Source: a virus
Taxonomy: Duplodnaviria; Caudoviricetes
Direction: 5' to 3' (one strand)
DNA length: 64,000 bases
IMG/VR virus record: IMGVR_UViG_3300032285_003957
Span: 64,001-128,000 of that record
Position numbers and translations under genes: made by a program
In this document: positions 1-63,759 of the stretch, piece by piece
Layout of the letters: each line of letters begins with the position of its first letter
Numbering within the stretch: position 1 is the stretch's first letter
The notes under the pieces: model-generated
Seen by the model: only the letters and a program-made list of their open reading frames with translations
The model's database searches: none
Told to the model about the DNA's origin: nothing

Positions 1-310
1 TTTCAAGTGTTCGATATTTTTCATCGCTTAAAAATACGTTTAGGCTATCACAATCAACATATGTAACATCAGTTTTTAATTCCTTAATTAATTTAAAACT
101 AAAAAAGAATTTATCAAAATAGCTGAATATTTTTTTTTCGTATTGATATGTTGTGCAACCAACCCCTTCAAATTCTTGAGGTGTGTCTGTTAATATTCTA
201 ACATCAAAATTGAATTCATTAACTAAACGCTTAACATTATCAATGCATTGACTTGCATATGATAAACCGTCATCGTCCACACCGACACATATTAATGCTA
301 ATACTTTCAT
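1..310 (-). CDS. Partial GT-A-like protein, paralog of the adjacent 313..1053 gene (runs off the window)
   Basis: Manual translation MKVLALICVGVDDDGLSYASQCIDNVKRL...KIFSYFDKFFFSFKLIKELKTDVTYVDCD closely matches the neighbour; has a DxD-like DCD motif. Confidence 0.6.
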   Translation of the reverse strand, partial: MKVLALICVGVDDDGLSYASQCIDNVKRLVNEFNFDVRILTDTPQEFEGVGCTTYQYEKKIFSYFDKFFFSFKLIKELKTDVTYVDCDSLNVFLSDEKYRTLE

Positions 311-312
311 GT

Positions 313-1053
313 TTAAATCAATGTTTTACTTTTGTCTTGGAATATGACGTCATATCTTTCTCTAAATAACATTTGATCCTCAAGTTTTTCTTTACCAATA
401 TTATTAACATCTAAAGCGTATGAAAGAGCTAAACCTTCACCATGTCCAAATATTAATCGGTTATTTAAATTTATAGAATACAACGACATATATTCAAACA
501 CAGGTTTTATTTTTTCCAATTCATATTGAACATTATCGTAGTCCAAACCAACGGGAAAATACAATAAACGTTCGTGCATTGTCTCTAACTTAGATATATC
601 ATATTTTTCCATTTCAAAAAATTCCAATAACGGATGTGACCAAATATCAAACTTAAAATCTTTTAAAAATTGATATGTCACCCATTCTTTGCTATTTTTA
701 ACGGACCAATATGTTAAATATAACACCTTATTTTGACTTTCTAAATTTCTAAATTTTTCAATTTTAAGTAAATAATCGATACAATCACAATCAATGTAAG
801 TTACCGATTTATTTAACTCCTTAATTAACTTAAATGAAAAAAAGAACTTATCAAAGTAGCTGAATATTTTCTTATCGTATTTGTAAATTGAACATCCAAG
901 ACCTTCAAATTCTTTTGGTGTGTCAGTTAATAATCTAACATCGAAACCAAAAACATCAATCAATTGCTTTACATTCTCAACACATTGGGTGTAGTATGGA
1001 ACACCTTTGTAATCATTCCCAACAGATATAATTGCAACTGTTTTCATCTTCAT
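313..1053 (-). CDS. Hypothetical protein, possible GT-A glycosyltransferase
   Basis: ORF track; start moved to the ATG at 1053 because the track start lies inside tRNA-Glu; YIDCD motif. Confidence 0.6.
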   Translation of the reverse strand: MKMKTVAIISVGNDYKGVPYYTQCVENVKQLIDVFGFDVRLLTDTPKEFEGLGCSIYKYDKKIFSYFDKFFFSFKLIKELNKSVTYIDCDCIDYLLKIEKFRNLESQNKVLYLTYWSVKNSKEWVTYQFLKDFKFDIWSHPLLEFFEMEKYDISKLETMHERLLYFPVGLDYDNVQYELEKIKPVFEYMSLYSINLNNRLIFGHGEGLALSYALDVNNIGKEKLEDQMLFRERYDVIFQDKSKTLI

Positions 1054-1056
1054 ATG

Positions 1057-1128
1057 TACTCCCAACGGGATTCGAACCCGTGACTCATCCGTGAAAGGGA
1101 CGTGACTTAACCGCTTGTCGATGGGAGC
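1057..1128 (-). tRNA. trnE: tRNA-Glu(TTC)
   Basis: Cloverleaf GCTCCCA/TGGGAGT, anticodon arm CGTCC-CT TTC AC-GGATG, GGTTCGAATCC T-arm. Confidence 0.93.
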
Positions 1129-1142
1129 GTTTCGGGACGAGT

Positions 1143-1330
1143 CAGGTTAACTCTTGTGTCCCTACTTAATAGTTGTGTTTAGAGGGAAGTCCAAAACACG
1201 GTATTCACCAAAAGGGACTTTACTTTCGATTATCGCTGAAACTTTTAACTACGCTCAATGTATCTTTTAATTTGTTTCGTTTAACGTCCAAACAAATGTC
1301 CCAGTTGAGCGGGACAAAAAAGACGACCTG
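1143..1330 (-). ncRNA. Candidate structured ncRNA with two predicted pseudoknots
   Basis: Several 5-7 bp complementary segments in crossing topology; no credible same-strand ORF; fills the spacer between two tRNA-like units. Confidence 0.45.
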
Positions 1331-1461
1331 TGGGTTAGGAGTGGGAATCGAACCCATAACGATGCGTAATCTTCTACTTCAACTCCTTGTACTTCAGAGT
1401 CCGTCACCGCGTCCCGTATGTAGCCTCCATACGGTGCATCTTCCATTTCTGCTACCTACCC
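1331..1461 (-). ncRNA. Giant tRNA-like RNA A (131 nt)
   Basis: Acceptor GGGTAGG/CCTAACCC, Leu-type D arm GCAGAAATGGAAGATGC, 7-bp stem CCGTATG/CATACGG, about 60-nt variable region, T-arm TGGG-TTCGATT-CCCA. Confidence 0.65.
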
Positions 1462-1468
1462 AAATTTG

Positions 1469-1609
1469 CAATCAAGATAGGATTTGAACCTATAAGCCGT
1501 TTTCGTGTTCTTCCATTCCACTCAACGACATACCTATGTGATCCTGCGGGAAGAAATCGTCCATCTTGCGATGCCTACATAGGTGTGTATCACACTACAC
1601 TTCTTGATT
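1469..1609 (-). ncRNA. Giant tRNA-like RNA B (141 nt)
   Basis: Acceptor AATCAAG/CTTGATT, D stem GTGT/ACAC, 8-bp ACCTATGT/ACATAGGT enclosing 37 nt, long variable arm, T-arm ATAGG-TTCAAAT-CCTAT. Confidence 0.7.
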
Positions 1610-1613
1610 GTTG

Positions 1614-1701
1614 CGGAGAGAGTAGGATTCGAACCCACGGACCCCTTTCGAGATCTTCAGTTTTCAAGACTGACGCAATCGGCCAACTCTGCCATCTCTC
1701 C
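1614..1701 (-). tRNA. trnS: tRNA-Ser(TGA)
   Basis: GGAGAGA acceptor, TCAGT-CT TGA AA-ACTGA, long variable arm, G73. Confidence 0.95.
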
Positions 1702-1922
1702 AAATTCCCCACATTGAGATTACTTGTGAGTAGTTATTTCGGTTTTCTATTTCTTAAAAACCTGTGAGGCATCCCTCATTAAAACATCCGACCTAATACT
1801 TGGGGGAGAGTAGGTTCACAATCCTTATTCCCAACGAGTAGTTCTTAAGATGACACTACTAACGTCTAATCCATTGTTAAATGAGTCTTGGATCAAAGAC
1901 TGCTGAGTATCTCTTACTCATT
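1702..1922 (-). ncRNA. Candidate multi-hairpin ncRNA between tRNA-Asp and tRNA-Ser
   Basis: At least six short hairpins (TGAGTA/TACTCA, AGTCTT/AAGACT, AGTAGT/ACTACT, TGAGG/CCTCA, GGTTTT/AAAACC and others); no ORF. Confidence 0.4.
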
Positions 1923-1923
1923 G

Positions 1924-1997
1924 CGGAACGGACGAGACTCGAACTCGCGACCCCTACAGTGACAGTGTAGTATTCTAACCAACTGAACTACCGCTCC
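1924..1997 (-). tRNA. trnD: tRNA-Asp(GTC)
   Basis: GGAGCGG/CCGTTCC, CTACA-CT GTC AC-TGTAG, G73. Confidence 0.95.
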
Positions 1998-2083
1998 GTG
2001 TTTGATTCTAACTCACCTTAAATTGCACCATCCGAGTCACTGCTCTGGTTGACAAAGTCCTCGTTGAGTTAGTCTCAAAATTT

Positions 2084-2203
2084 TTACTTTTTTCTACGCT
2101 GTCTTAAAGCTGAACCTGCAACAGATTTGTAAGCTTTTGTTGTTTTCTTACTTCTCAATGCGCTACTTGCTTTCTTAGCAACTCTTCTTGACGTTCTTGC
2201 CAT
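2084..2203 (-). CDS. 39-aa highly basic peptide MARTSRRVAKKASSALRSKKTTKAYKSVAGSALRQRRKK (not in ORF track)
   Basis: Manual translation ATG to TAA with A-rich upstream context, directly after tRNA-fMet. Confidence 0.6.
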   Translation of the reverse strand: MARTSRRVAKKASSALRSKKTTKAYKSVAGSALRQRRKK

Positions 2204-2218
2204 AGTTAAAAGTTTTAG

Positions 2219-2290
2219 TTGCGAGAGAGGGAATCGAACCCCCGACCTAAAGGTTATGAGCCTTCCGAGCTACCGCTGCTCTATCTCGCG
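2219..2290 (-). tRNA. tRNA-Met(CAT), initiator-like (C1:A72 mismatch)
   Basis: CGCGAGA/TCTCGCA, GAAGG-CT CAT AA-CCTTT. Confidence 0.88.
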
Positions 2291-2302
2291 ATGTTTGTTT
2301 CA

Positions 2303-2332
2303 CAAAGATAAGAAATATTAATGATATACAAA
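2303..2332 (-). promoter_or_regulatory. Bacteroidota-type sigma70 promoter, internal to the array, upstream of the initiator-like tRNA
   Basis: TTTG-N18-TATCTTTG on the minus strand, matching the established -33/-7 consensus. Confidence 0.65.
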
Positions 2333-2352
2333 AATATTTCAAATCTTTTTTG

Positions 2353-2420
2353 TTGCGGGGCCAGGAGTCGAACCTGGAACACTCGGCTTATGAGGCCGGT
2401 GGGAAACCATTCTCCCCGCA
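2353..2420 (-). tRNA. tRNA(CAT) with shortened D arm (68 nt)
   Basis: TGCGGGG/CCCCGCA, CCGGC-CT CAT AA-GCCGA, canonical T-arm, D arm reduced to TGG-TTTC-CCA. Confidence 0.75.
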
Positions 2421-2425
2421 ATGTG

Positions 2426-2497
2426 GGTGTATGGACGGTATCGAACCGTCTTCCCGAGCTCCACAAACTCGTGCTTCACCTTAAAGCTTCAAACACC
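2426..2497 (-). tRNA. trnH: tRNA-His(GTG)
   Basis: G-1:C73 eight-pair acceptor, CGAGT-TT GTG GA-GCTCG. Confidence 0.9.
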
Positions 2498-2562
2498 GTG
2501 TGTGGAATCGAACCACTTTCCCATCTCCACGACAGGCGATACGTCCATTATCCTTTACCGGG
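2496..2562 (-). pseudogene. Degenerate tRNA-like remnant abutting tRNA-His
   Basis: T-arm GTGG-TTCGATT-CCAC and D-like GATA/TATC are present; acceptor and anticodon stems pair poorly. Confidence 0.4.
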
Positions 2563-2564
2563 TG

Positions 2565-2635
2565 AGTCAAGTACTGGAGTCGAACCAATCTAAAAAGTTT
2601 TGCAGACTTTCACCTAACCGCTCGGCCAACCTGAC
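2565..2635 (-). tRNA. trnC: tRNA-Cys(GCA)
   Basis: GTCAGGT/ACTTGAC, U73, AAAGT-CT GCA AA-ACTTT. Confidence 0.92.
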
Positions 2636-2639
2636 TTGT

Positions 2640-2694
2640 TTGTTCACTTTTTTCATCTGTTCACGGTCCGTGAACAATCAAATTTTGTGAACAG
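2640..2694. repeat. Symmetric element of four TGTTCAC/GTGAACA half-sites
   Basis: Heptamers at 2641, 2658, 2670 and 2687, with a dyad centre at 2667. Confidence 0.8.
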
Positions 2695-2766
2695 AGGTCT
2701 CTAAAGGATTTGAACCTTTACTAAAACATTCGTAGTGTTTCGTGCTATCCGTTACACCAAGAGACC
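2695..2766 (-). tRNA. trnR: tRNA-Arg(ACG)
   Basis: GGTCTCT/AGAGACC, AAACA-CT ACG AA-TGTTT. Confidence 0.93.
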
Positions 2767-2769
2767 TAT

Positions 2770-2958
2770 TTACTTCCATTGAGTCTTCCTTTGTTTTTTC
2801 CACGTTCTAAATTCTCTCCATTTGTGATTTGGTAGGTTACCATGATTAAAATTCCAACCATAATCCCAATCAAGTTCATATTTGTCCGGTGCTGTAACAA
2901 TTTTATACTCTTTGTTATGAGTGGTTTTTTGGCTTACCCTGCCTTTTACTGGTTTCAT
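2770..2958 (-). CDS. Small basic protein ending WKKQRKTQWK (paralog 1)
   Basis: ORF track; C-terminus shared with 3001..3174. Confidence 0.7.
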   Translation of the reverse strand: MKPVKGRVSQKTTHNKEYKIVTAPDKYELDWDYGWNFNHGNLPNHKWREFRTWKKQRKTQWK

Positions 2959-2972
2959 GCTATTAGGTTTAC

Positions 2973-2999
2973 CTAATGCATATCAAATTCTTTTTTCAT
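2973..2999 (-). CDS. 8-aa uORF MKKEFDMH (copy 1), stop codon inside hairpin ATTAGG-TAAA-CCTAAT
   Basis: ATG AAA AAA GAA TTT GAT ATG CAT TAG, starting 1 nt after the upstream stop. Confidence 0.6.
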   Translation of the reverse strand: MKKEFDMH

Positions 3000-3000
3000 T

Positions 3001-3174
3001 TTATTTCCATTTAGTTTTTCTGTGTTGTTTCCAACACTTATCAATTTTTTTTCTTGAACGATTGCAACCTTTATTAGGTCCACAGATAGGACAAGATAAT
3101 TCTCTACTCAACCAAACACGTTTAAATGTTTTACGGTCCGTAATTGTTTTGATGTTTCTTCTTGCTTTTGACAT
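3001..3174 (-). CDS. 57-aa Cys-containing basic protein ending WKQHRKTKWK (paralog 2, not in ORF track)
   Basis: Manual translation MSKARRNIKTITDRKTFKRVWLSRELSCPICGPNKGCNRSRKKIDKCWKQHRKTKWK. Confidence 0.72.
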   Translation of the reverse strand: MSKARRNIKTITDRKTFKRVWLSRELSCPICGPNKGCNRSRKKIDKCWKQHRKTKWK

Positions 3175-3190
3175 ATGATTAGGATTTTAC

Positions 3191-3217
3191 CTAATGCATG
3201 TCGAATTCTTTTTTCAT
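3191..3217 (-). CDS. 8-aa uORF MKKEFDMH (copy 2), stop codon inside hairpin ATTAGG-TAAAAT-CCTAAT
   Basis: ATG AAA AAA GAA TTC GAC ATG CAT TAG, starting 2 nt after the upstream stop. Confidence 0.6.
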   Translation of the reverse strand: MKKEFDMH

Positions 3218-3219
3218 GG

Positions 3220-3462
3220 TTACTTATATTTTCTTATTGTTTTAAAAACTTTTGTTATATCGGTCAATTCCATTACTTGGTCGTTTCTAATTGGATAAAA
3301 TGCAATTGTAAAACCGTGGTTTCCAAGATAGAAATCTTCCTTCATTATTCTATTGCCATTTACCTTTTCAAGATATATCCAAGGATAGTTACCAACCAAT
3401 TCAACGTTGATTCCTATCTTCTTTAATCTTGGGACTAACCTGTTTATTACGTTGTCTTCCAT
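3220..3462 (-). CDS. Hypothetical protein (80 aa, MEDNVINRL...)
   Basis: ORF track, trimmed to the ATG at 3462 because the longer start overlaps tRNA-Trp. Confidence 0.65.
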   Translation of the reverse strand: MEDNVINRLVPRLKKIGINVELVGNYPWIYLEKVNGNRIMKEDFYLGNHGFTIAFYPIRNDQVMELTDITKVFKTIRKYK

Positions 3463-3476
3463 AACTTTATTTTTAG

Positions 3477-3547
3477 CACGGGTGGAGAGATTCGAACTCC
3501 CATCGATGGTTTTGGAGACCATAATTCTGCCGTTGAACTACACCCGC
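3477..3547 (-). tRNA. trnW: tRNA-Trp(CCA)
   Basis: GCGGGTG/CACCCGT, ATGGT-CT CCA AA-ACCAT, G73. Confidence 0.94.
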
Positions 3548-3554
3548 GTATTTG

Positions 3555-3629
3555 TGACCCCTTTGGGACTCGAACCCAAAACCCACTGGTTAAAAGCCAG
3601 TTACTCTAATCCGATTGAGCTAAGAGGTC
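3555..3629 (-). tRNA. trnK: tRNA-Lys(TTT)
   Basis: GACCTCT/AGGGGTC, ACTGG-CT TTT AA-CCAGT. Confidence 0.95.
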
Positions 3630-3638
3630 TTACTCTTG

Positions 3639-3764
3639 TCACTTTCCATAGTTGTTGTTTTTAATTTGTTCAAATAACTTATTATGTCTTATCTTTTTAT
3701 CTTCTTGCATCTTCTTTATCAATGCAATAAAATCTTTGCTTGCTTTTACTTTAATCGTTTTCAT
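3639..3764 (-). CDS. 41-aa Lys-rich small ORF (MKTIKVKASKDFIALIKK...)
   Basis: Manual translation; fills the Phe-Lys tRNA spacer. Confidence 0.4.
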   Translation of the reverse strand: MKTIKVKASKDFIALIKKMQEDKKIRHNKLFEQIKNNNYGK

Positions 3765-3778
3765 AAAATACCTTTTAG

Positions 3779-3851
3779 TGGAAATGGTTGGTTTCGACCC
3801 AACTCCTGAAGATTTTCAGTCTTCCGCTTCTACCAAGTTAGCTTCATTTCC
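3779..3851 (-). tRNA. trnF: tRNA-Phe(GAA)
   Basis: GGAAATG/CATTTCC, GAAGA-CT GAA AA-TCTTC; T-loop starts with G. Confidence 0.92.
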
Positions 3852-3856
3852 TATTG

Positions 3857-3929
3857 TTCTTAGAGATGGGTTCGAACCATCAACCTTCCGCGTATCAGGC
3901 GGATGCTCTCACCATTGAGCTACCTAAGA
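3857..3929 (-). tRNA. trnI: tRNA-Ile(GAT)
   Basis: TCTTAGG/TCTAAGA, TCCGC-CT GAT AC-GCGGA. Confidence 0.93.
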
Positions 3930-3934
3930 ATATG

Positions 3935-4007
3935 TGGAGTAAGTGGAACTCGAATCCACAACCTCAAGAATGCAAATCTTGTGCTCATCCGCTAGAGCTT
4001 TTACCCC
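3935..4007 (-). tRNA. trnA: tRNA-Ala(TGC)
   Basis: GGGGTAA/TTACTCC with the G3:U70 Ala determinant, CAAGA-TT TGC AT-TCTTG. Confidence 0.93.
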
Positions 4008-4009
4008 AT

Positions 4010-4046
4010 AAAACAAAAAACCCCGAGATTTTTAAGTCTCAGGGTT
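4010..4046 (-). terminator. Intrinsic terminator (attenuator) immediately before the first tRNA
   Basis: 10-bp stem AACCCTGAGA/TCTCGGGGTT, 8-nt loop, then TTTTGTTTT. Confidence 0.8.
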
Positions 4047-4068
4047 CTTCAATATTGTTAGTTAAAAA

Positions 4069-4167
4069 TTACCAACCACTTGCTTCACTGAGACTATTGG
4101 ACATAGCACGCTCATCCGCCCATTTTGAACAGATAATAAACGACATTGTATGTTTTGTTTGTCTCAT
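4069..4167 (-). CDS. 32-aa leader peptide MRQTKHTMSFIICSKWADERAMSNSLSEASGW (not in ORF track)
   Basis: Manual translation; lies between promoter and terminator; contains the antiterminator arm AGTCTCAG. Confidence 0.7.
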   Translation of the reverse strand: MRQTKHTMSFIICSKWADERAMSNSLSEASGW

Positions 4168-4194
4168 CGAAGTTTTTTTTAATTTAATCTTTTA

Positions 4195-4226
4195 CAAAGA
4201 TAACAATAAGTATCCGAAAAAACAAG
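4195..4226 (-). promoter_or_regulatory. Bacteroidota-type promoter driving the leader and tRNA array
   Basis: CTTG-N20-TATCTTTG, about 30 nt upstream of the leader ATG. Confidence 0.7.
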
Positions 4227-4290
4227 AAAAGTTCAAAATATTTTTTTTCTTAAAATAGAATATAGAGATTGCCTAATGATATTTATCAGT

Positions 4291-4788
4291 ATGACAAAAA
4301 TATTGAAGGTATCTCTCCTACCTTTATTCATGCTGTTTATGGGCCAAACCCACGCCCAAAAAGTATATCTTGATAAGGTAGAGAACAAAGTTGTAATGGG
4401 TAAAATGGCCGGTAACCGTAATCTTGGTTTCGGTTGTAAAAACATTTTCTTAGAAATTTTACAGGACAAAAATTATGATATTACCGAAACTGTGGCAGAC
4501 GCTGACATGGTATTTAAGGCTGATATTATGTATTTTGATGTAAACAGAACAAAAAGAAATGTGTCTGTATTCCATTCCGATGTGGAAGAGACTTTGGTTG
4601 TAATCAAGGGGTATCTCTATGACAAAAGTGGTAAAAAAATTAAAGAGGCTGTTGCAGAAGAGTCAAGTTCAGAAATATCCACATCAACACTTATAACAGA
4701 TGAAGGAAGTAGCTCCATAAATCAACAAGCTTTATCGCAAGCCATTAAAAAAACTTGCGTTACATTAATAAATAAAATTTTTAAATAA
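4291..4788 (+). CDS. Secreted protein, CsgG/LptE-like alpha-beta fold (tentative)
   Basis: Signal peptide ending THA-Q; start preferred at 4291, after the TATTTAT motif. Confidence 0.55.
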   Translation: MTKILKVSLLPLFMLFMGQTHAQKVYLDKVENKVVMGKMAGNRNLGFGCKNIFLEILQDKNYDITETVADADMVFKADIMYFDVNRTKRNVSVFHSDVEETLVVIKGYLYDKSGKKIKEAVAEESSSEISTSTLITDEGSSSINQQALSQAIKKTCVTLINKIFK

Positions 4789-4790
4789 AC

Positions 4791-6446
4791 ATGAAAAAAA
4801 TAATAAATTTAATTGTATTAACAACATTAATACCATTCATTTCATTTGGCCAATTAACTGTAAACCAAACAGTAACCCCAACAACAGGGTTAAAAGTTGG
4901 TGATACCGTTTCGGTAAAGTATACTGTGGCAAGAGGAACTACGACACCTCGTTATTTTTGGTTAAGATACCAATATAATAACAAAGCTTTAGCTTATGTT
5001 TCAACAACATTCTCACAAGGAACTTCAGTTCAAACATATTACACAAACTGGTCTTCTTATAAATTCACAGCAAATGCAAATAAAGATGCTACCGATTTGT
5101 ATGAGCAATATAAATTAACACCATGGGCGTATACAACCAATGCTGATTGGAATGTTGGTCAGTTAACAGTTCAAAGAACTGACGCAGCAATTAATGGAGA
5201 CATTGCAACTCAAAAATATGTAATCAAAGATTTAGGTGATTATACAAACATCCATAAAATAGATTTATCCTATTCAATTGATGGAACAGGTGCTAATATT
5301 AGCCCAATCACAACTAATCCTGGTACAATGTCTTTATCAAACGTTGTTGGTAACACATCTCAATTTAAAGTAAGAGTTTTATTCCCAACAGGATACGATA
5401 TCACTTCTCATAGTGTGTCTTTATTACCATTAAAAACAACAGGTGAGGTTGATTGGACCGCAAGAGCCATTGCAACTAAACCATTGGATGCAAGTGGTGA
5501 AGCCATTTTTACAACGGAGGCTAAAGTAGGTGACACGTTTGCTGTATTTGTAAATGCGGCATTACAGAAAACATTTATGAATAACATCATAACAGTATCA
5601 GACGCTTATAAAGCATTCTTAGGTGTTTCCCAAACAGATATCAATGGTAACGCAACTTACTTTACATATCCTTCATTAGAGAAGAAAATTGGTTTAATTA
5701 CAAACGGAAAAACAGCATTTAGCGAAAGCGACTCATACAATTTATTTGCAAATGTTATGGGTATTGATGTTAGTTCTGTTGCAATGATTCCATCAAATGC
5801 TGCACCCGTAAATGGTGTGGTTAACTTCAAATGGTATAATGGTTTATTAAATCAAAGTTGGTTAGACGGCGTTCCAACATATAAAACAAAAGTAACATCA
5901 TCAAATCAAGCGGTTGATATGGTATTTGCATGGGGCGGTGATTTAGACTGGTCTCATTCATCTTCACCAACAGAAATTGCATCAAGAATTTCAAGTGGTA
6001 ATTACGCTAACTCGGTTAACCCATCAAACGGAACCATCAAAACCATGTCTTTAACAACTATGTCATATACACCAACAATAGAAAAAGCAACATTAGGTTT
6101 AGCTTCAACAATTGTTAATGGTAAAGTTGTATTAACAGGAACTTTAACTAAAGATGGTTTAGCAGGTTTAGAAGTTATTTTACAATATGATAACACAAAA
6201 TTAACATTTGATAATATTGCGTTTGATGCGGGTGCAAGTGTAACTAACTTTTCAACAAACACAGATGGTAGATTAACATTTGGTTCTATGGATCAAACAA
6301 AAACTGCAAGAATTAAAATAGGAACACCATATAAATTAACATTTACACCAAAAGAAACATTAACAAATACAGCGGGATTATTCTACACAGTTTTAGCTGA
6401 CGCTGTTGATGGAAATGGAAATAAAATCAACTTAACGGTTGAATAA
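4791..6446 (+). CDS. Secreted beta-rich protein with C-terminal cohesin-like domain
   Basis: Signal peptide (SFG-Q); GLEVILQYDNTKLTF cohesin-like pattern. Confidence 0.6.
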   Translation: MKKIINLIVLTTLIPFISFGQLTVNQTVTPTTGLKVGDTVSVKYTVARGTTTPRYFWLRYQYNNKALAYVSTTFSQGTSVQTYYTNWSSYKFTANANKDATDLYEQYKLTPWAYTTNADWNVGQLTVQRTDAAINGDIATQKYVIKDLGDYTNIHKIDLSYSIDGTGANISPITTNPGTMSLSNVVGNTSQFKVRVLFPTGYDITSHSVSLLPLKTTGEVDWTARAIATKPLDASGEAIFTTEAKVGDTFAVFVNAALQKTFMNNIITVSDAYKAFLGVSQTDINGNATYFTYPSLEKKIGLITNGKTAFSESDSYNLFANVMGIDVSSVAMIPSNAAPVNGVVNFKWYNGLLNQSWLDGVPTYKTKVTSSNQAVDMVFAWGGDLDWSHSSSPTEIASRISSGNYANSVNPSNGTIKTMSLTTMSYTPTIEKATLGLASTIVNGKVVLTGTLTKDGLAGLEVILQYDNTKLTFDNIAFDAGASVTNFSTNTDGRLTFGSMDQTKTARIKIGTPYKLTFTPKETLTNTAGLFYTVLADAVDGNGNKINLTVE

Positions 6447-59752: not shown

Positions 59753-62650
59753 ATGAAAGAGGTTATCTCTCAGGAGGTTATTGAGGCATTTCTCAATGGC
59801 GGCGACGATGAAATGTATATCGTTGGAGTCGAATACGACTACAGAACAAACAAAATTCACAAAATTATTCAAGACCCTGAACAGGGTAAAATTATCAAAC
59901 CAGATACGTTCACACCATTCTTATGGGTTGGTGATTTATCGGGCTTAGGGTTTTATGGTAATTCTAAAGCAACGCAAAAAAAGGCGATGACCAAACATGG
60001 AATTATTATAGAAAAACTTGAAACCGATGGAAACGAACGATTAGAAAATGGCTTAAAGTATTTGGTTAAATCATTAAAGAGTTACACCAATTTAACAAGT
60101 TTTTTTAAAGAGGGTGGTATTGACCCATGGGGTGAAAATTTTAGACAATACTTTGCTATTTTATCGCCTGTTGAGCAATATCTAATAGATAAGAGAAAAA
60201 GATTATTTAAAGGTATTGATGATTATTCAGGTGTTCATCGATTTGTATTCGATATTGAGACGACAGGTTTGGAACCCGAAAATTGTAACATTATTTTGAT
60301 TGGTGTTAAAGATAATAGAGGGTTAAACAGAACTATTCCTGCGTTTGGTGAAGATGGTGAAAAAAAATGTATTGAAGAATTTTTCTTAATTATTAGAGAA
60401 ATAAAACCAACAATAATCGGTGGATATAACTCAGCATTTTTTGACTGGCCATTTATATTAAAGCGTGCTGAAATTTTAGGGGTCGATACTCAAGGCTTAA
60501 CCAAAATATTTACAAATGATGGTATTTCAGAAAAAGAAGGTATGCTTAAACTTGCTAATGAAGTTGAACCATACAAACAACATGTCATATGGGGATTTAA
60601 CATTGTTGATATTGCGCATGCTGTTCGTAGAGCACAAGCAATCAACTCAGAAATCAAATCATGGGGATTAAAATACATTACAAAATATTTGGAAAAAGAA
60701 AAACCTAATCGTGTTTATGTAGAAGGTTCAAAAATTTCTAAAATATATTTGGATAATGAAACATATTATGTAAATCCTAAAACAGGTGGTTACAAATTAG
60801 TTGGTGAACCTGGTACCGAAGATTTATTAATAAAATATCCAAATAAATTTGAAGTATGGGGTGGGCAAAAAATCGTGGAGCAATATCTTGATGATGACTT
60901 AACAGAAACTATGGTTGTTGATGATTCTTTTAGTCAATCAACATTTTTACTTTCTAAGTTAGTCCCAACAACATATGAGAGGATTGCAACAATGGGAACA
61001 GCTACATTATGGAAAATTATCATGTTAGCTTGGTCTTATGAAAATGGTTTAGCGATTCCCGCAAAAGATGAGAAGCGAGCAATCACAGGTGGTTTATCAC
61101 GTTTGTTAAATGTCGGCTATTCAAAGAATATCGTTAAGTTTGACTATGCATCACTTTATCCATCAATTCAATTAGTATATGATGTGTTCCCTGAATGTGA
61201 TGTTATGGGCGTTCAGAAATCAATGTTAAAATATTTCCGTAACATTCGTATTAAGTATAAACGTTTAGCGGGTGAATTGGCTAAAACAAATCCAGTTGAA
61301 GCTGAAATGTATGACCGTAAACAATTACCGATTAAGATTTTTATTAACGCTTATTTTGGTTCATTATCTGCACCACATGTATTTCCTTGGGGAGATATGA
61401 ATATGGGTGAAACAATTACTTGCACAGGTCGTCAATGTTTACGTATGATGATTATGTTCTTTATGAAAAAAGGTTATAAACCTCTTGTGATGGATACGGA
61501 TGGTGTTAACTTTGAAACGCCCTCAACAATTGATACACACACATATATTGGTAAAGGTTTAAATGAATTAACCGAAGAGGGTAAAGAATATAAAGGTATT
61601 GAAGCAGACACAGCCGAATTCAATGATATCTTTATGAGAAATGAAATGGGTTTAGATATTGACTATGTTGCGCCTGCTTGTATTAATGTATCTCGTAAGA
61701 ATTACATTATCAAAATGATGAAAAAAGGTAAAGAGAAAATTAAATTAACGGGTAATACTATCAAGTCAAAAAAATTACAACAATATGTTGTTGAGTTTTT
61801 AGATGAAGGTTTAAAATATTTGTTAAATGGCGATGGTCATGCTTTTGTGGAATTGTATTATGATTATGTAAATAAAATTTATAATAAGGAAATTCCATTA
61901 GCAAAGATTGCAAACAAATCTCGTGTTAAACAATCGTTAGAGGATTATAAAAAACACATTAAGAAAACTACTAAAGCAGGTTCATTAATGTCGAGACAAG
62001 CACACATGGAATTAATTTTGGAAAACAATTATCCTGCGGGTCTCGGTGAAACAATCTATTATGTTAATAACGGTATTAAAAAATCATCAGGCGATGTTCA
62101 AAAAATAACTAAACCAACTAAAAAAGCACAAGAAGAATTTTTAGCTAAACATGGTCACCCAATGCCAAATGATTATATTGAAATTAATTGTTATATGATT
62201 CCTGAAAAGGAAATTACTAATAATCCTGATTTGAAAGGTGATTATAATGTTGCTCGTTATTTGAATAATTTCAATAAAAGAATTGAACCATTATTATGTG
62301 TATTCAAAACAGATATTCGTGACGACATCTTAATTGAAGACCCAAAGGATAGACAATACTTTACTAAATCACAATGTGAACTTGTTAATGGTTTCCCATT
62401 AAAAGAAGATGGTCAAGATAAATTTGATGAAGTAATGACTTTATCTGATAGTGAAGTTTTGTTTTGGAACAGAGTTAAAAGAGACCCTTTCTTTATGTAT
62501 GTTGAAAACAGTTTAGAACTTGTTGACCAAAATTGGGTTGAGCACAATAGAAAAGTTGTTGCATTACAAGCAAATAGCACCGTAAGTAATGAAGATGAAA
62601 TCATTGAAACAAATGGACATGATTATGCTTATCATGCGATAGAAAGTTAA
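59753..62650 (+). CDS. polB: DNA polymerase family B with 3'-5' exonuclease
   Basis: FDIETTG, YNSAFFD, FDYASLYPS, KIFINAYFG, DTDG. Confidence 0.93.
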   Translation: MKEVISQEVIEAFLNGGDDEMYIVGVEYDYRTNKIHKIIQDPEQGKIIKPDTFTPFLWVGDLSGLGFYGNSKATQKKAMTKHGIIIEKLETDGNERLENGLKYLVKSLKSYTNLTSFFKEGGIDPWGENFRQYFAILSPVEQYLIDKRKRLFKGIDDYSGVHRFVFDIETTGLEPENCNIILIGVKDNRGLNRTIPAFGEDGEKKCIEEFFLIIREIKPTIIGGYNSAFFDWPFILKRAEILGVDTQGLTKIFTNDGISEKEGMLKLANEVEPYKQHVIWGFNIVDIAHAVRRAQAINSEIKSWGLKYITKYLEKEKPNRVYVEGSKISKIYLDNETYYVNPKTGGYKLVGEPGTEDLLIKYPNKFEVWGGQKIVEQYLDDDLTETMVVDDSFSQSTFLLSKLVPTTYERIATMGTATLWKIIMLAWSYENGLAIPAKDEKRAITGGLSRLLNVGYSKNIVKFDYASLYPSIQLVYDVFPECDVMGVQKSMLKYFRNIRIKYKRLAGELAKTNPVEAEMYDRKQLPIKIFINAYFGSLSAPHVFPWGDMNMGETITCTGRQCLRMMIMFFMKKGYKPLVMDTDGVNFETPSTIDTHTYIGKGLNELTEEGKEYKGIEADTAEFNDIFMRNEMGLDIDYVAPACINVSRKNYIIKMMKKGKEKIKLTGNTIKSKKLQQYVVEFLDEGLKYLLNGDGHAFVELYYDYVNKIYNKEIPLAKIANKSRVKQSLEDYKKHIKKTTKAGSLMSRQAHMELILENNYPAGLGETIYYVNNGIKKSSGDVQKITKPTKKAQEEFLAKHGHPMPNDYIEINCYMIPEKEITNNPDLKGDYNVARYLNNFNKRIEPLLCVFKTDIRDDILIEDPKDRQYFTKSQCELVNGFPLKEDGQDKFDEVMTLSDSEVLFWNRVKRDPFFMYVENSLELVDQNWVEHNRKVVALQANSTVSNEDEIIETNGHDYAYHAIES

Positions 62651-63759
62651 ATAATATTAATAGGGCTTGGCATTGCTCTGAACTTCAAAGATTTGTTAAG
62701 ATTTTCAGCCTCACCTGCTTTTCTTTCAAGCATTTTGTCGGGACGTAATCTTTCTAATCTTGCCATAAGTTCTTCAACTAATTTAGATTTTTCATCTTTA
62801 CCTTCGGTAAGTAATGAATTGTAATCTAATTTAACTGAATTATCAGGAACTTGTAAATCTCCTGAGAATTTACCCCAGATTCTACCCAAACCCTCTTTAG
62901 AGTAGGCGATAAGATATTTTCTTACCCAATTCTGAGAGGGTTTATTTAATGAATCCCATGTAAGCGCCTCAGTATCGACATCTGAAGGTAATTTAATAAC
63001 ATCTTTGTTTTTCTTTAAACAAGTGTCTCTATCCATAGTATCATAATACCAATACCAAACTTGATAACTATTTTGTAATGAACCGAAATCAAATCTGCCG
63101 CCCGGAACATTTAATAAGTGTAATAGCTTTTTACCTTCAGGACCTGCAGTGATTCTATATGTTAAATCACCACCAATCATTCTATTCTTAAGGTTTCTAT
63201 CACCCATTCTTAATAACAAGTCAAATGCAGGTAATAGGAAATAAGAACCTGAAGTTCCAACCTGAGCAAATCCACCCACGCCACCAAATCCAACACCACC
63301 AAGACCACCAAATCCACCCAAGAATGGGTCAACAATTGAATCGGTTAATGTTGCACGAGTAAACCATAAAACCTCATTTATTTCACGTCCTGCAGGTATT
63401 TCATATATTTGTTGTCCTTTTTCTAAAGTAATATAATCTTTCTTTAACTCCCAATCACCACCTGCTTGTAAACCAACTATTTTAGAATAAGAATGTGTAT
63501 ATTGAGTTTCAAAATCCAAACTTCTTGTTGTAAAAGCTCTACTCAAAGATTGAGTATCAACGTTTAATCCATATAATGATGACCATTGTGATTCTATCAA
63601 CCAGTCACTCACATATTGTTCATATTCGGAAATAGATAACTCCAAGAAAGTATCCATTTGTTCTTCCGTTAATTCCACACCACGAACAGGTAATCCCAAT
63701 AAATGGAATATCTGGGTGTATAATTTTTGTTTGTCAGATTGTGAAATAATGTCGCTCAT
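62647..63759 (-). CDS. Probable neck/head-completion protein
   Basis: LGLPVRGVELTEEQMD N-terminus and Gly-rich loop resembling T4-like neck proteins. Confidence 0.55.
   Translation of the reverse strand: MSDIISQSDKQKLYTQIFHLLGLPVRGVELTEEQMDTFLELSISEYEQYVSDWLIESQWSSLYGLNVDTQSLSRAFTTRSLDFETQYTHSYSKIVGLQAGGDWELKKDYITLEKGQQIYEIPAGREINEVLWFTRATLTDSIVDPFLGGFGGLGGVGFGGVGGFAQVGTSGSYFLLPAFDLLLRMGDRNLKNRMIGGDLTYRITAGPEGKKLLHLLNVPGGRFDFGSLQNSYQVWYWYYDTMDRDTCLKKNKDVIKLPSDVDTEALTWDSLNKPSQNWVRKYLIAYSKEGLGRIWGKFSGDLQVPDNSVKLDYNSLLTEGKDEKSKLVEELMARLERLRPDKMLERKAGEAENLNKSLKFRAMPSPINII

Follow-up and report, generated by a model that had tools for sequence, protein, structure and literature searches.

Upstream of a tRNA array in a phage genome lies a short leader, leader 1, whose codons list the tRNA species encoded just downstream. 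We consider it likely, with a probability of roughly 0.8, that leader 1 is a ribosome-mediated (leader-peptide) transcription attenuator gating the phage tRNA operon. The anatomy of the unit, the statistical match of leader to array, the replication of that match and its co-variation with array content in relatives are shown. Translation of the leader, the function of its terminator and the direction of the response are inferred, and there is no experimental or RNA-read evidence for them.

The window, meaning the whole 64,000-nt stretch analysed, comprises bases 64001-128000 of a 234-kb virus record (G000); positions are those of the window unless another record is named. The phage is uncultured and has a T4-like but distant terminase (no more than 28% identity, from PHROGs and Pfam searches with neighbouring ORFs), and comparison of those ORFs places uncultured huge phages and Flavobacterium phages as its closest relatives. 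Most of the neighbouring ORFs are without a match in PHROGs or Pfam. Promoters and terminators of the phage are of the Bacteroidota type. A scan of genome contigs with the terminator pattern gave nine matches (L092-L100) in Bacteroidota, Ignavibacteria and one Leptospira MAG, mostly terminators of ordinary genes (Flavobacteriaceae, Ignavibacteriales, Melioribacter and other Bacteroidota). The consensus of the window's terminator thus ends ordinary Bacteroidota and Ignavibacteria genes, and the phage therefore uses host-style terminators. A Ferruginibacter match to the pattern was considered as a further unit and rejected; it has a tRNA array nearby but no convincing leader.

Leader 1 and its tRNA array

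The features of the unit are collected in Table 1. The leader ORF (4167-4069) is the short ORF between the -7 box and tRNA-Ala, on the same strand as both. Upstream of it on the minus strand there is only a divergent plus-strand gene, and the terminator at 4050-4008 therefore ends nothing but the transcript of this mini-ORF. The terminator, a GC-rich hairpin with a U tract, is predicted and its termination activity inferred; it stands between the leader and the tRNA genes. As tRNA-Ala begins at 4007, 1 nt after the end of the U tract, there is no room for a promoter between the two, and the sole route from the leader promoter to tRNA-Ala through tRNA-His crosses the intrinsic terminator. The preliminary description, made from sequence alone, had placed a promoter, a 32-codon ORF, an 8-nt complement, TGAGAC at the start codon, a terminator and tRNA-Ala here; all of these held on the minus strand.

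Table 1. Positions of the leader units, the tRNA array and associated elements
Feature	Position	Strand	Basis and remarks
Promoter, Bacteroidota type	4195..4226	-	Read from sequence; -7 box TATCTTTG at 4202-4195, TTG near -33 at 4225-4223
Region 1 (protector strand)	4161..4172	-	Includes start codon; TGAGAC at 4166-4161; pairs with region 2
Leader 1 ORF	4069..4167	-	32 codons plus TAA; ORF list; homologues in L004, L005, L021, L028, L060
Control codons 6-20	4108..4152	-	Codon labelling; run is HTMSFIICSKWADER
11-bp hairpin within control region	4112..4136	-	Minimum-energy and centroid folds; also forms in L004
Region 2	4083..4095	-	Codons 25-29; holds AGTCTCAG at 4095-4088
Intrinsic terminator (predicted)	4008..4050	-	Stem 4050-4015, 8-nt loop, -14.6 kcal/mol, U tract to 4008
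tRNA array 1	1056..4007	-	ARAGORN and Rfam; 13 tRNA genes
Internal promoter	2303..2332	-	Just upstream of initiator-like tRNA; full TTTG-N17-23-TAnnTTTG site
Leader 2	G000 63338-63231 = L035 3839-3732	-	Promoter, 35-codon ORF, related terminator
GTTCTTTGA motif	G000 63141	-	Also in L004, L006, L010, L011, L016, L019, L034, downstream of terminators
Terminator consensus			Common to the phage and L092-L100: AACCC..TTAAAAA..GGGTTTTTTGTTTTA

A TAnnTTTG box occurs at a similar upstream distance before the homologous leaders in L004, L005, L021 and L028 and before the leader-2 family. Scanning for sigma-70 consensus promoters did no better than on shuffles, which makes such a scan uninformative for a host of this type. 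At 193 nt, the leader RNA folds unusually well (z = -5.0; none of 200 shuffles folds as well). The 11-bp hairpin within the control region could be an RNA polymerase pause hairpin, a function that is only inferred. A cmscan of window positions 1-6000 against Rfam with E up to 1 returned only tRNA matches and weak noise, and no known leader, T-box or sRNA family.

The genes of array 1 run in the order Ala, Ile, Phe, Lys, Trp, Arg(ACG), Cys, His, an odd CAT tRNA, an initiator-like Met, Asp, Ser(TGA) and Glu. The odd one, a 13th gene (2353-2420, minus strand), is tRNA-like; its anticodon is CAT and its D arm is shortened. Rfam scores it at 35.7 bits, and ARAGORN missed it. It lies 4 nt after tRNA-His and just upstream of the internal promoter, and L004 has an equivalent element ahead of its own promoter. 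Several spacers of the arrays hold further sequence. A 709-nt insert between tRNA-Trp and tRNA-Arg(ACG) (2767-3475, minus strand) has three small ORFs of ~57-80 aa without a Pfam match, and L004 has an insert of nearly equal length, 711 nt, in the same place. The 148-nt spacer between tRNA-Phe and tRNA-Lys is filled by a Lys-rich ORF of 41 codons (3639-3764, minus strand), again without a Pfam match. Two minus-strand spacers are tRNA-like and uncalled by ARAGORN or Rfam: one of 67 nt at G000 66497-66563 (window 2497-2563) with a GGTTCGATTCC T-loop motif, and one of 117 nt at G000 62015-62131 with complementary acceptor-like ends.

The site at 2332-2303 is the only full TTTG-N17-23-TAnnTTTG site within the arrays, and in L004 a TAnnTTTG -7 box, TACATTTG, is found in the same place, just upstream of the equivalent CAT tRNA. 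It had been cautioned beforehand that this internal promoter can feed the initiator-like tRNA, Asp, Ser and Glu independently. That caveat held, and control of those tRNAs is therefore partial. As far as the sequence allows an inference, the attenuator probably has only partial control of four or five tRNAs, with the internal promoter able to bypass the switch.

Codons 6-20 of leader 1 contain all 12 amino acids of array 1, with a single Thr codon as the sole outsider. Each of the 12 tRNA species has one or two codons in this run, in the right isoacceptor boxes: TCG/TCA and CGT fall inside it, while AGT and AGA fall outside. When open 15-codon windows were enumerated in six frames over the whole 234-kb genome, just one of 201,278 covered all 12 array-1 tRNAs, and it is codons 6-20 of leader 1. 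The coverage, the Thr outsider and the isoacceptors had all been claimed in the preliminary description and all held; its chance estimate of 1e-5 is close to the 5e-6 per window obtained here. The codon match of leader 1 to array 1 is not due to chance. There is no collinearity between the order of leader codons and that of the tRNA genes.

A second leader and the leaders of related phages

A second unit lies on the minus strand ~4.8 kb downstream of leader 1, just outside the window. Its array begins with tRNA-Leu(TAA) and continues with 12 more genes: Arg(TCT), Pro, Asn, Leu(TAG), Tyr, CAT, Val, Gly(GCC), Thr, Gly(TCC), Gln and Ser(GCT). Array 2 reads 23 of the 24 codons from 3 to 26 of leader 2, a run that includes codons for both Gly and both Leu isoacceptors, AGT, AGA and an ATA. 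All 13 array-2 tRNAs are covered by one open 18-codon window in the genome out of 177,588, and this window lies in leader 2. The isoacceptors are split between the leaders, with AGT/AGA in leader 2 and TCR/CGT in leader 1. Together the two arrays make up a near-complete decoding set, and each leader spells out the half that belongs to the array immediately downstream of it. Leader 2 with array 2 is an independent replicate of leader 1 with array 1, for a complementary set of tRNAs. ATA codons are kept in all leader-2 homologues, and because of this we argue that the CAT tRNA of array 2 reads ATA (Ile2).

In both leaders, leader 1 (4069-4167, minus strand) and leader 2 (G000 63231-63338, minus strand), codons ending in G, which are wobble-read through U34 tRNAs, are enriched: they account for 10 of 27 A/G-ending codons (37%), against 16% in the long ORFs of the phage (Fisher p = 0.007). 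Such an excess would raise the sensitivity of a leader.

Units of the leader-2 type have 55-90 nt between the terminator and the first tRNA, with a conserved motif, GTTCTTTGA(C/A), that also follows some tRNAs. The motif may be a processing signal or an unrecognised promoter; considered as a promoter, its spacing does not fit the -33/-7 type. If it is one, attenuator control of array 2 is weakened. Between tRNA-Leu(TAA) and tRNA-Arg(TCT) of array 2 there is an ORF of 149 aa with an HNH endonuclease motif (L035 3042-3491, minus strand; G000 62541-62990). Its Pfam HNH_3 and HNH scores are just under the cut-offs, and from these sub-threshold scores we infer that it probably encodes a homing endonuclease.

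Related units were collected as 31 viral loci, from a neighbour-protein search and a scan for the terminator pattern, and 56 more from a metagenome scan. The metagenome matches are apparently mostly freshwater, judged by contig names. A blastn search of INPHARED phages with the leader region found no relative, its sole match being a 39-nt terminator stretch in LR745206.1. In most matches to the terminator pattern a short ORF ends ~20-35 nt before the terminator, and tRNA genes follow. The peptide sequence of the leaders is not conserved, and their composition follows the array. L004, which carries both leaders, has tRNA-Thr in array 1; its leader 2 has no Thr codon in the control run and its leader 1 has one Thr codon more. 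L021, L028 and L060 have a clear leader-1 homologue and the same terminator before a different array (Pro, Trp, Gln, Arg, Thr, Leu, Tyr/Asn, Met, Asp, Ser, Glu), and in their leaders the His, Phe, Ile, Cys, Lys and Ala codons are exchanged for Tyr, Thr, Pro, Gln and Asn codons. Smaller arrays are matched as closely. Six consecutive Gln codons and a terminator precede two tRNA-Gln genes, 4 nt on, in L011, L018 and L051; 16 consecutive codons of the L088 leader (3-18) specify only Asn, His, Thr, Lys and Ile, exactly the tRNAs found downstream; and codons 4-23 of the L037 leader specify only the seven amino acids of its array.

One unit has a synthetase gene in place of tRNA genes. LR745206.1 (L001), a 634-kb uncultured phage, has a 16-codon leader with four Phe codons, a terminator ~92% identical to that of the window, and then a PheRS gene, at 2928-4140 on the plus strand. 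The enzyme is of the monomeric type (Pfam tRNA-synt_2d with a weak, sub-threshold FDX-ACB match). Judged from its sequence, the unit resembles a Phe attenuator of the classical kind placed before a phage synthetase gene.

To score the match across families we used the harmonic mean of two fractions, the share of leader codons that the array can read and the share of array species that have a codon in the leader. With 8 families, the true pairing of leaders and arrays is the single best of 40,320 permutations; with 12 families, none of 1,000,000 random pairings matches the true one, and 11 of the 12 arrays rank their own leader first. Within homologous families we compared leaders for tRNA classes present in one array only. 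The leader with the tRNA has more cognate codons in 46 comparisons, equally many in 11 and fewer in 1, and these comparisons are not mutually independent. The permutation tests assume independence of the families. ARAGORN, the main program used to call the arrays, missed at least one tRNA, and contig ends truncate some arrays; scoring assumes that family boxes are read by a single U34 tRNA, and CAT anticodons are ambiguous. A survey of whether the leaders of relatives track their arrays and keep the antiterminator had been proposed in advance. It was run and came out positive: the tracking of leader content held, and nearly every unit retains the antiterminator segment close to the ORF end, in some cases with compensatory changes.

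Pairings in the leader RNA and a proposed switch

Three predicted pairings compete in the leader RNA. Regions 1 and 2 form an interrupted helix of 11 bp in the minimum-energy fold, in agreement with the earlier suggestion that TGAGAC at the start codon acts as a protector. The inner 6 bp of this helix are kept in 5 relatives, and a compensatory double change distinguishes four members (TGAGAC/GTCTCR) from L005 (TGAAAC/GTTTCG); the protector helix is absent in about half of the related units. In the second pairing, AGTCTCAG (4095-4088) exactly complements CTGAGACT (4042-4035) in the 5' arm of the terminator over 8 bp, and the third is the terminator stem itself. Region 2 is kept in L004, L021 and L028, and in L005 it is extended to 12 bp in a shifted register. 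When family 1 is aligned, three islands of conserved nucleotides stand out: the start-codon block, region 2 and the terminator. The family-2 peptides drift except at the AGT/TGT-TCG-GAY codons, which form the antiterminator and are conserved as nucleotides. A compensatory change in the antiterminator separates L009-2 from L010-2, which differ in the leader segment and the terminator arm alike.

The segment that pairs best with the terminator 5' arm has its end close to the stop codon, from 20 nt before it to 10 nt after it, in 20 of 22 units. Antiterminator duplexes range from -5.5 to -16 kcal/mol among the units; the terminators themselves fall between -12 and -17. Tested unit by unit against shuffles, the complementarity has p values of 0.006-0.05 in most families and 0.14-0.53 in leader-1 types except L005. 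The leader-1 antiterminator is short (8 bp) and not individually significant, and the evidence for it as an alternative that excludes the terminator is only partial.

We folded nascent RNA with a 30-nt ribosome footprint masked, which is a crude model. Without a ribosome, regions 1 and 2 are paired and the terminator arm is free, the state predicted to terminate. In leader 1 the antiterminator is part of the minimum-energy structure with the A-site at about codons 1-12 and 16-21, and in leader 2 at about codons 1-26. Region 2 is masked when the A-site is in the last ~ten codons. The antitermination zones give way to masking where the runs of cognate codons end, a zoning that is seen again across 22 units. 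Two positions in leader 1 do not fit the mask model: codons 13-15 give no antiterminator, and a ribosome on the stop codon does.

In the mechanism we propose, a ribosome slowed anywhere in the checklist by a scarce charged tRNA would leave region 2 free to pair with the terminator arm, and polymerase would read into the tRNA genes. With fast decoding, the ribosome would reach the last ~ten codons and cover region 2, so that the terminator forms and tRNA synthesis is off. Without a ribosome, regions 1 and 2 would pair and transcription would terminate. This would be a kinetic race of the trp type, in which the time a ribosome takes to cross the checklist signals how available each of the operon's tRNAs is. 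The outcome would be closed-loop control by the phage of its own tRNA supply, with the second attenuator acting likewise on the remaining 13 tRNAs. Leader 1 has only one or two codons per species and therefore probably integrates the total delay rather than giving an all-or-none response to one codon, although this too is inferred. It is possible that a single hungry codon, with one or two codons per tRNA, gives only a weak signal.

The attenuator interpretation had been put forward in the preliminary description and is supported by the comparative evidence. That the leader is translated, that the terminator is active and that stalling raises readthrough are still inferred, and the link drawn there to host defence nucleases that cut tRNAs is speculation. 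A bolder reading, which we also hold to be likely, is that large phages control their own tRNA pools in a closed loop through 'codon-checklist' attenuators with up to 13 codon classes per leader, the leader being re-coded whenever a tRNA gene moves between operons. These would form a widespread, undescribed regulatory class and a natural multi-input sensor of decoding capacity. Its extension, that phages could respond in this way to depletion or cleavage of host tRNAs, is no more than a possibility.

Alternative explanations and comparison with known attenuators

The rival that survives best is that translation of the leader senses the tRNA set, and the output is not a choice between antiterminator and terminator. 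The 8-bp complementarity would then be incidental, and the output might be Rho-dependent termination or polarity, ribosome-dependent protection from RNases, or precursor processing. In its favour, the codon match is very strong, yet the antiterminator pairing of family 1 is short and individually weak, and some positions in the masked folds are off the model. Against it, every unit has a canonical intrinsic terminator, the segment complementary to its arm holds its position close to the stop codon across unrelated leader families, there are covarying changes, and the masked folds give the expected zones in 22 units. We find this rival unlikely.

A second rival is somewhat less plausible still. 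The leader could be an independent small gene, for a micropeptide or a small RNA, with its own terminator; the array would be constitutive through leaky readthrough or unrecognised promoters, and the codon match would have some other cause. Promoter, ORF and terminator do make up a complete small transcription unit, an internal promoter exists, and the conserved spacer after the terminator in leader-2-type units could hide another. However, the peptide sequence is unconserved while its composition follows the array, there is no promoter space before tRNA-Ala, and we can conceive of no other reason for a micropeptide to list the neighbouring tRNAs and to be re-coded when a tRNA moves. A chance ORF beside an ordinary terminator, which an AT-rich genome with many short ORFs might suggest, is all but excluded by a checklist window that is unique genome-wide for each of two arrays, by the random pairings, none of a million of which equals the true one, and by the conservation of homologous leaders across many contigs.

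Next to nothing is known about how phage tRNA arrays are regulated, and they are commonly regarded as constitutive codon-usage patches. If the attenuator reading is true, textbook leader-peptide attenuation extends to tRNA genes, where the molecule sensed is also the product. The tRNA supply of these phages would be homeostatic and divided into separately controlled sets. A single leader would read a dozen tRNA species, a property relevant to the design of synthetic sensors for translational capacity, and phage tRNA genes would have a testable link to host conditions that lower tRNA availability, anticodon nucleases included. Leader content also predicts operon content, a computational handle that aids the assignment of ambiguous CAT-anticodon tRNAs.

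To our knowledge, no described leader-peptide attenuator regulates genes other than those for amino-acid biosynthesis enzymes or aminoacyl-tRNA synthetases. With 13 tRNA genes downstream, leader 1 departs from the described attenuators in the genes regulated. No description of leader-peptide control of tRNA genes was found in the literature searched (full text). Leader-peptide attenuation itself is known for amino-acid genes; what is likely to be novel is tRNA genes as its target and the multivalent checklist.

T-boxes bind uncharged tRNA directly through a specifier codon, without translation. As proposed for leader 1, they sense tRNA status and set terminator readthrough before translation-related genes. 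Unlike in a T-box, the signal in leader 1 is an ORF, and there is no T-box match in Rfam. A gene of the translation apparatus is under leader-peptide control in E. coli, where the pheST attenuator has the pheM leader. The Phe-rich leader, terminator and PheRS of LR745206.1 follow the same logic, whereas the output in the window would be the tRNAs themselves, many of them sensed at once.

Multivalent leader-peptide attenuators are known in enterobacteria, namely ilvGMEDA (Ile/Leu/Val) and thr (Thr/Ile), alongside trpL, hisL, pheL and leuL. The phage units resemble these in having a promoter, a short leader rich in regulatory codons (its translation is inferred here), an intrinsic terminator, predicted alternative pairings 1:2, 2:3 and 3:4, of which the 2:3 antiterminator is only partly supported, and no regulatory protein. 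The antiterminator is the weaker of the two hairpins, as it is in trp. They differ in several respects. Leader 1 is phage-borne, belongs to a Bacteroidota-type host system and has no sequence or Rfam similarity to the enterobacterial attenuators. Its region 2 is inside the ORF, 17 nt before the stop codon, and it would regulate tRNA genes rather than biosynthetic enzymes. Where the enterobacterial leaders repeat the codons of one to three amino acids, the phage leaders sample 12-13 tRNA species once or twice each.
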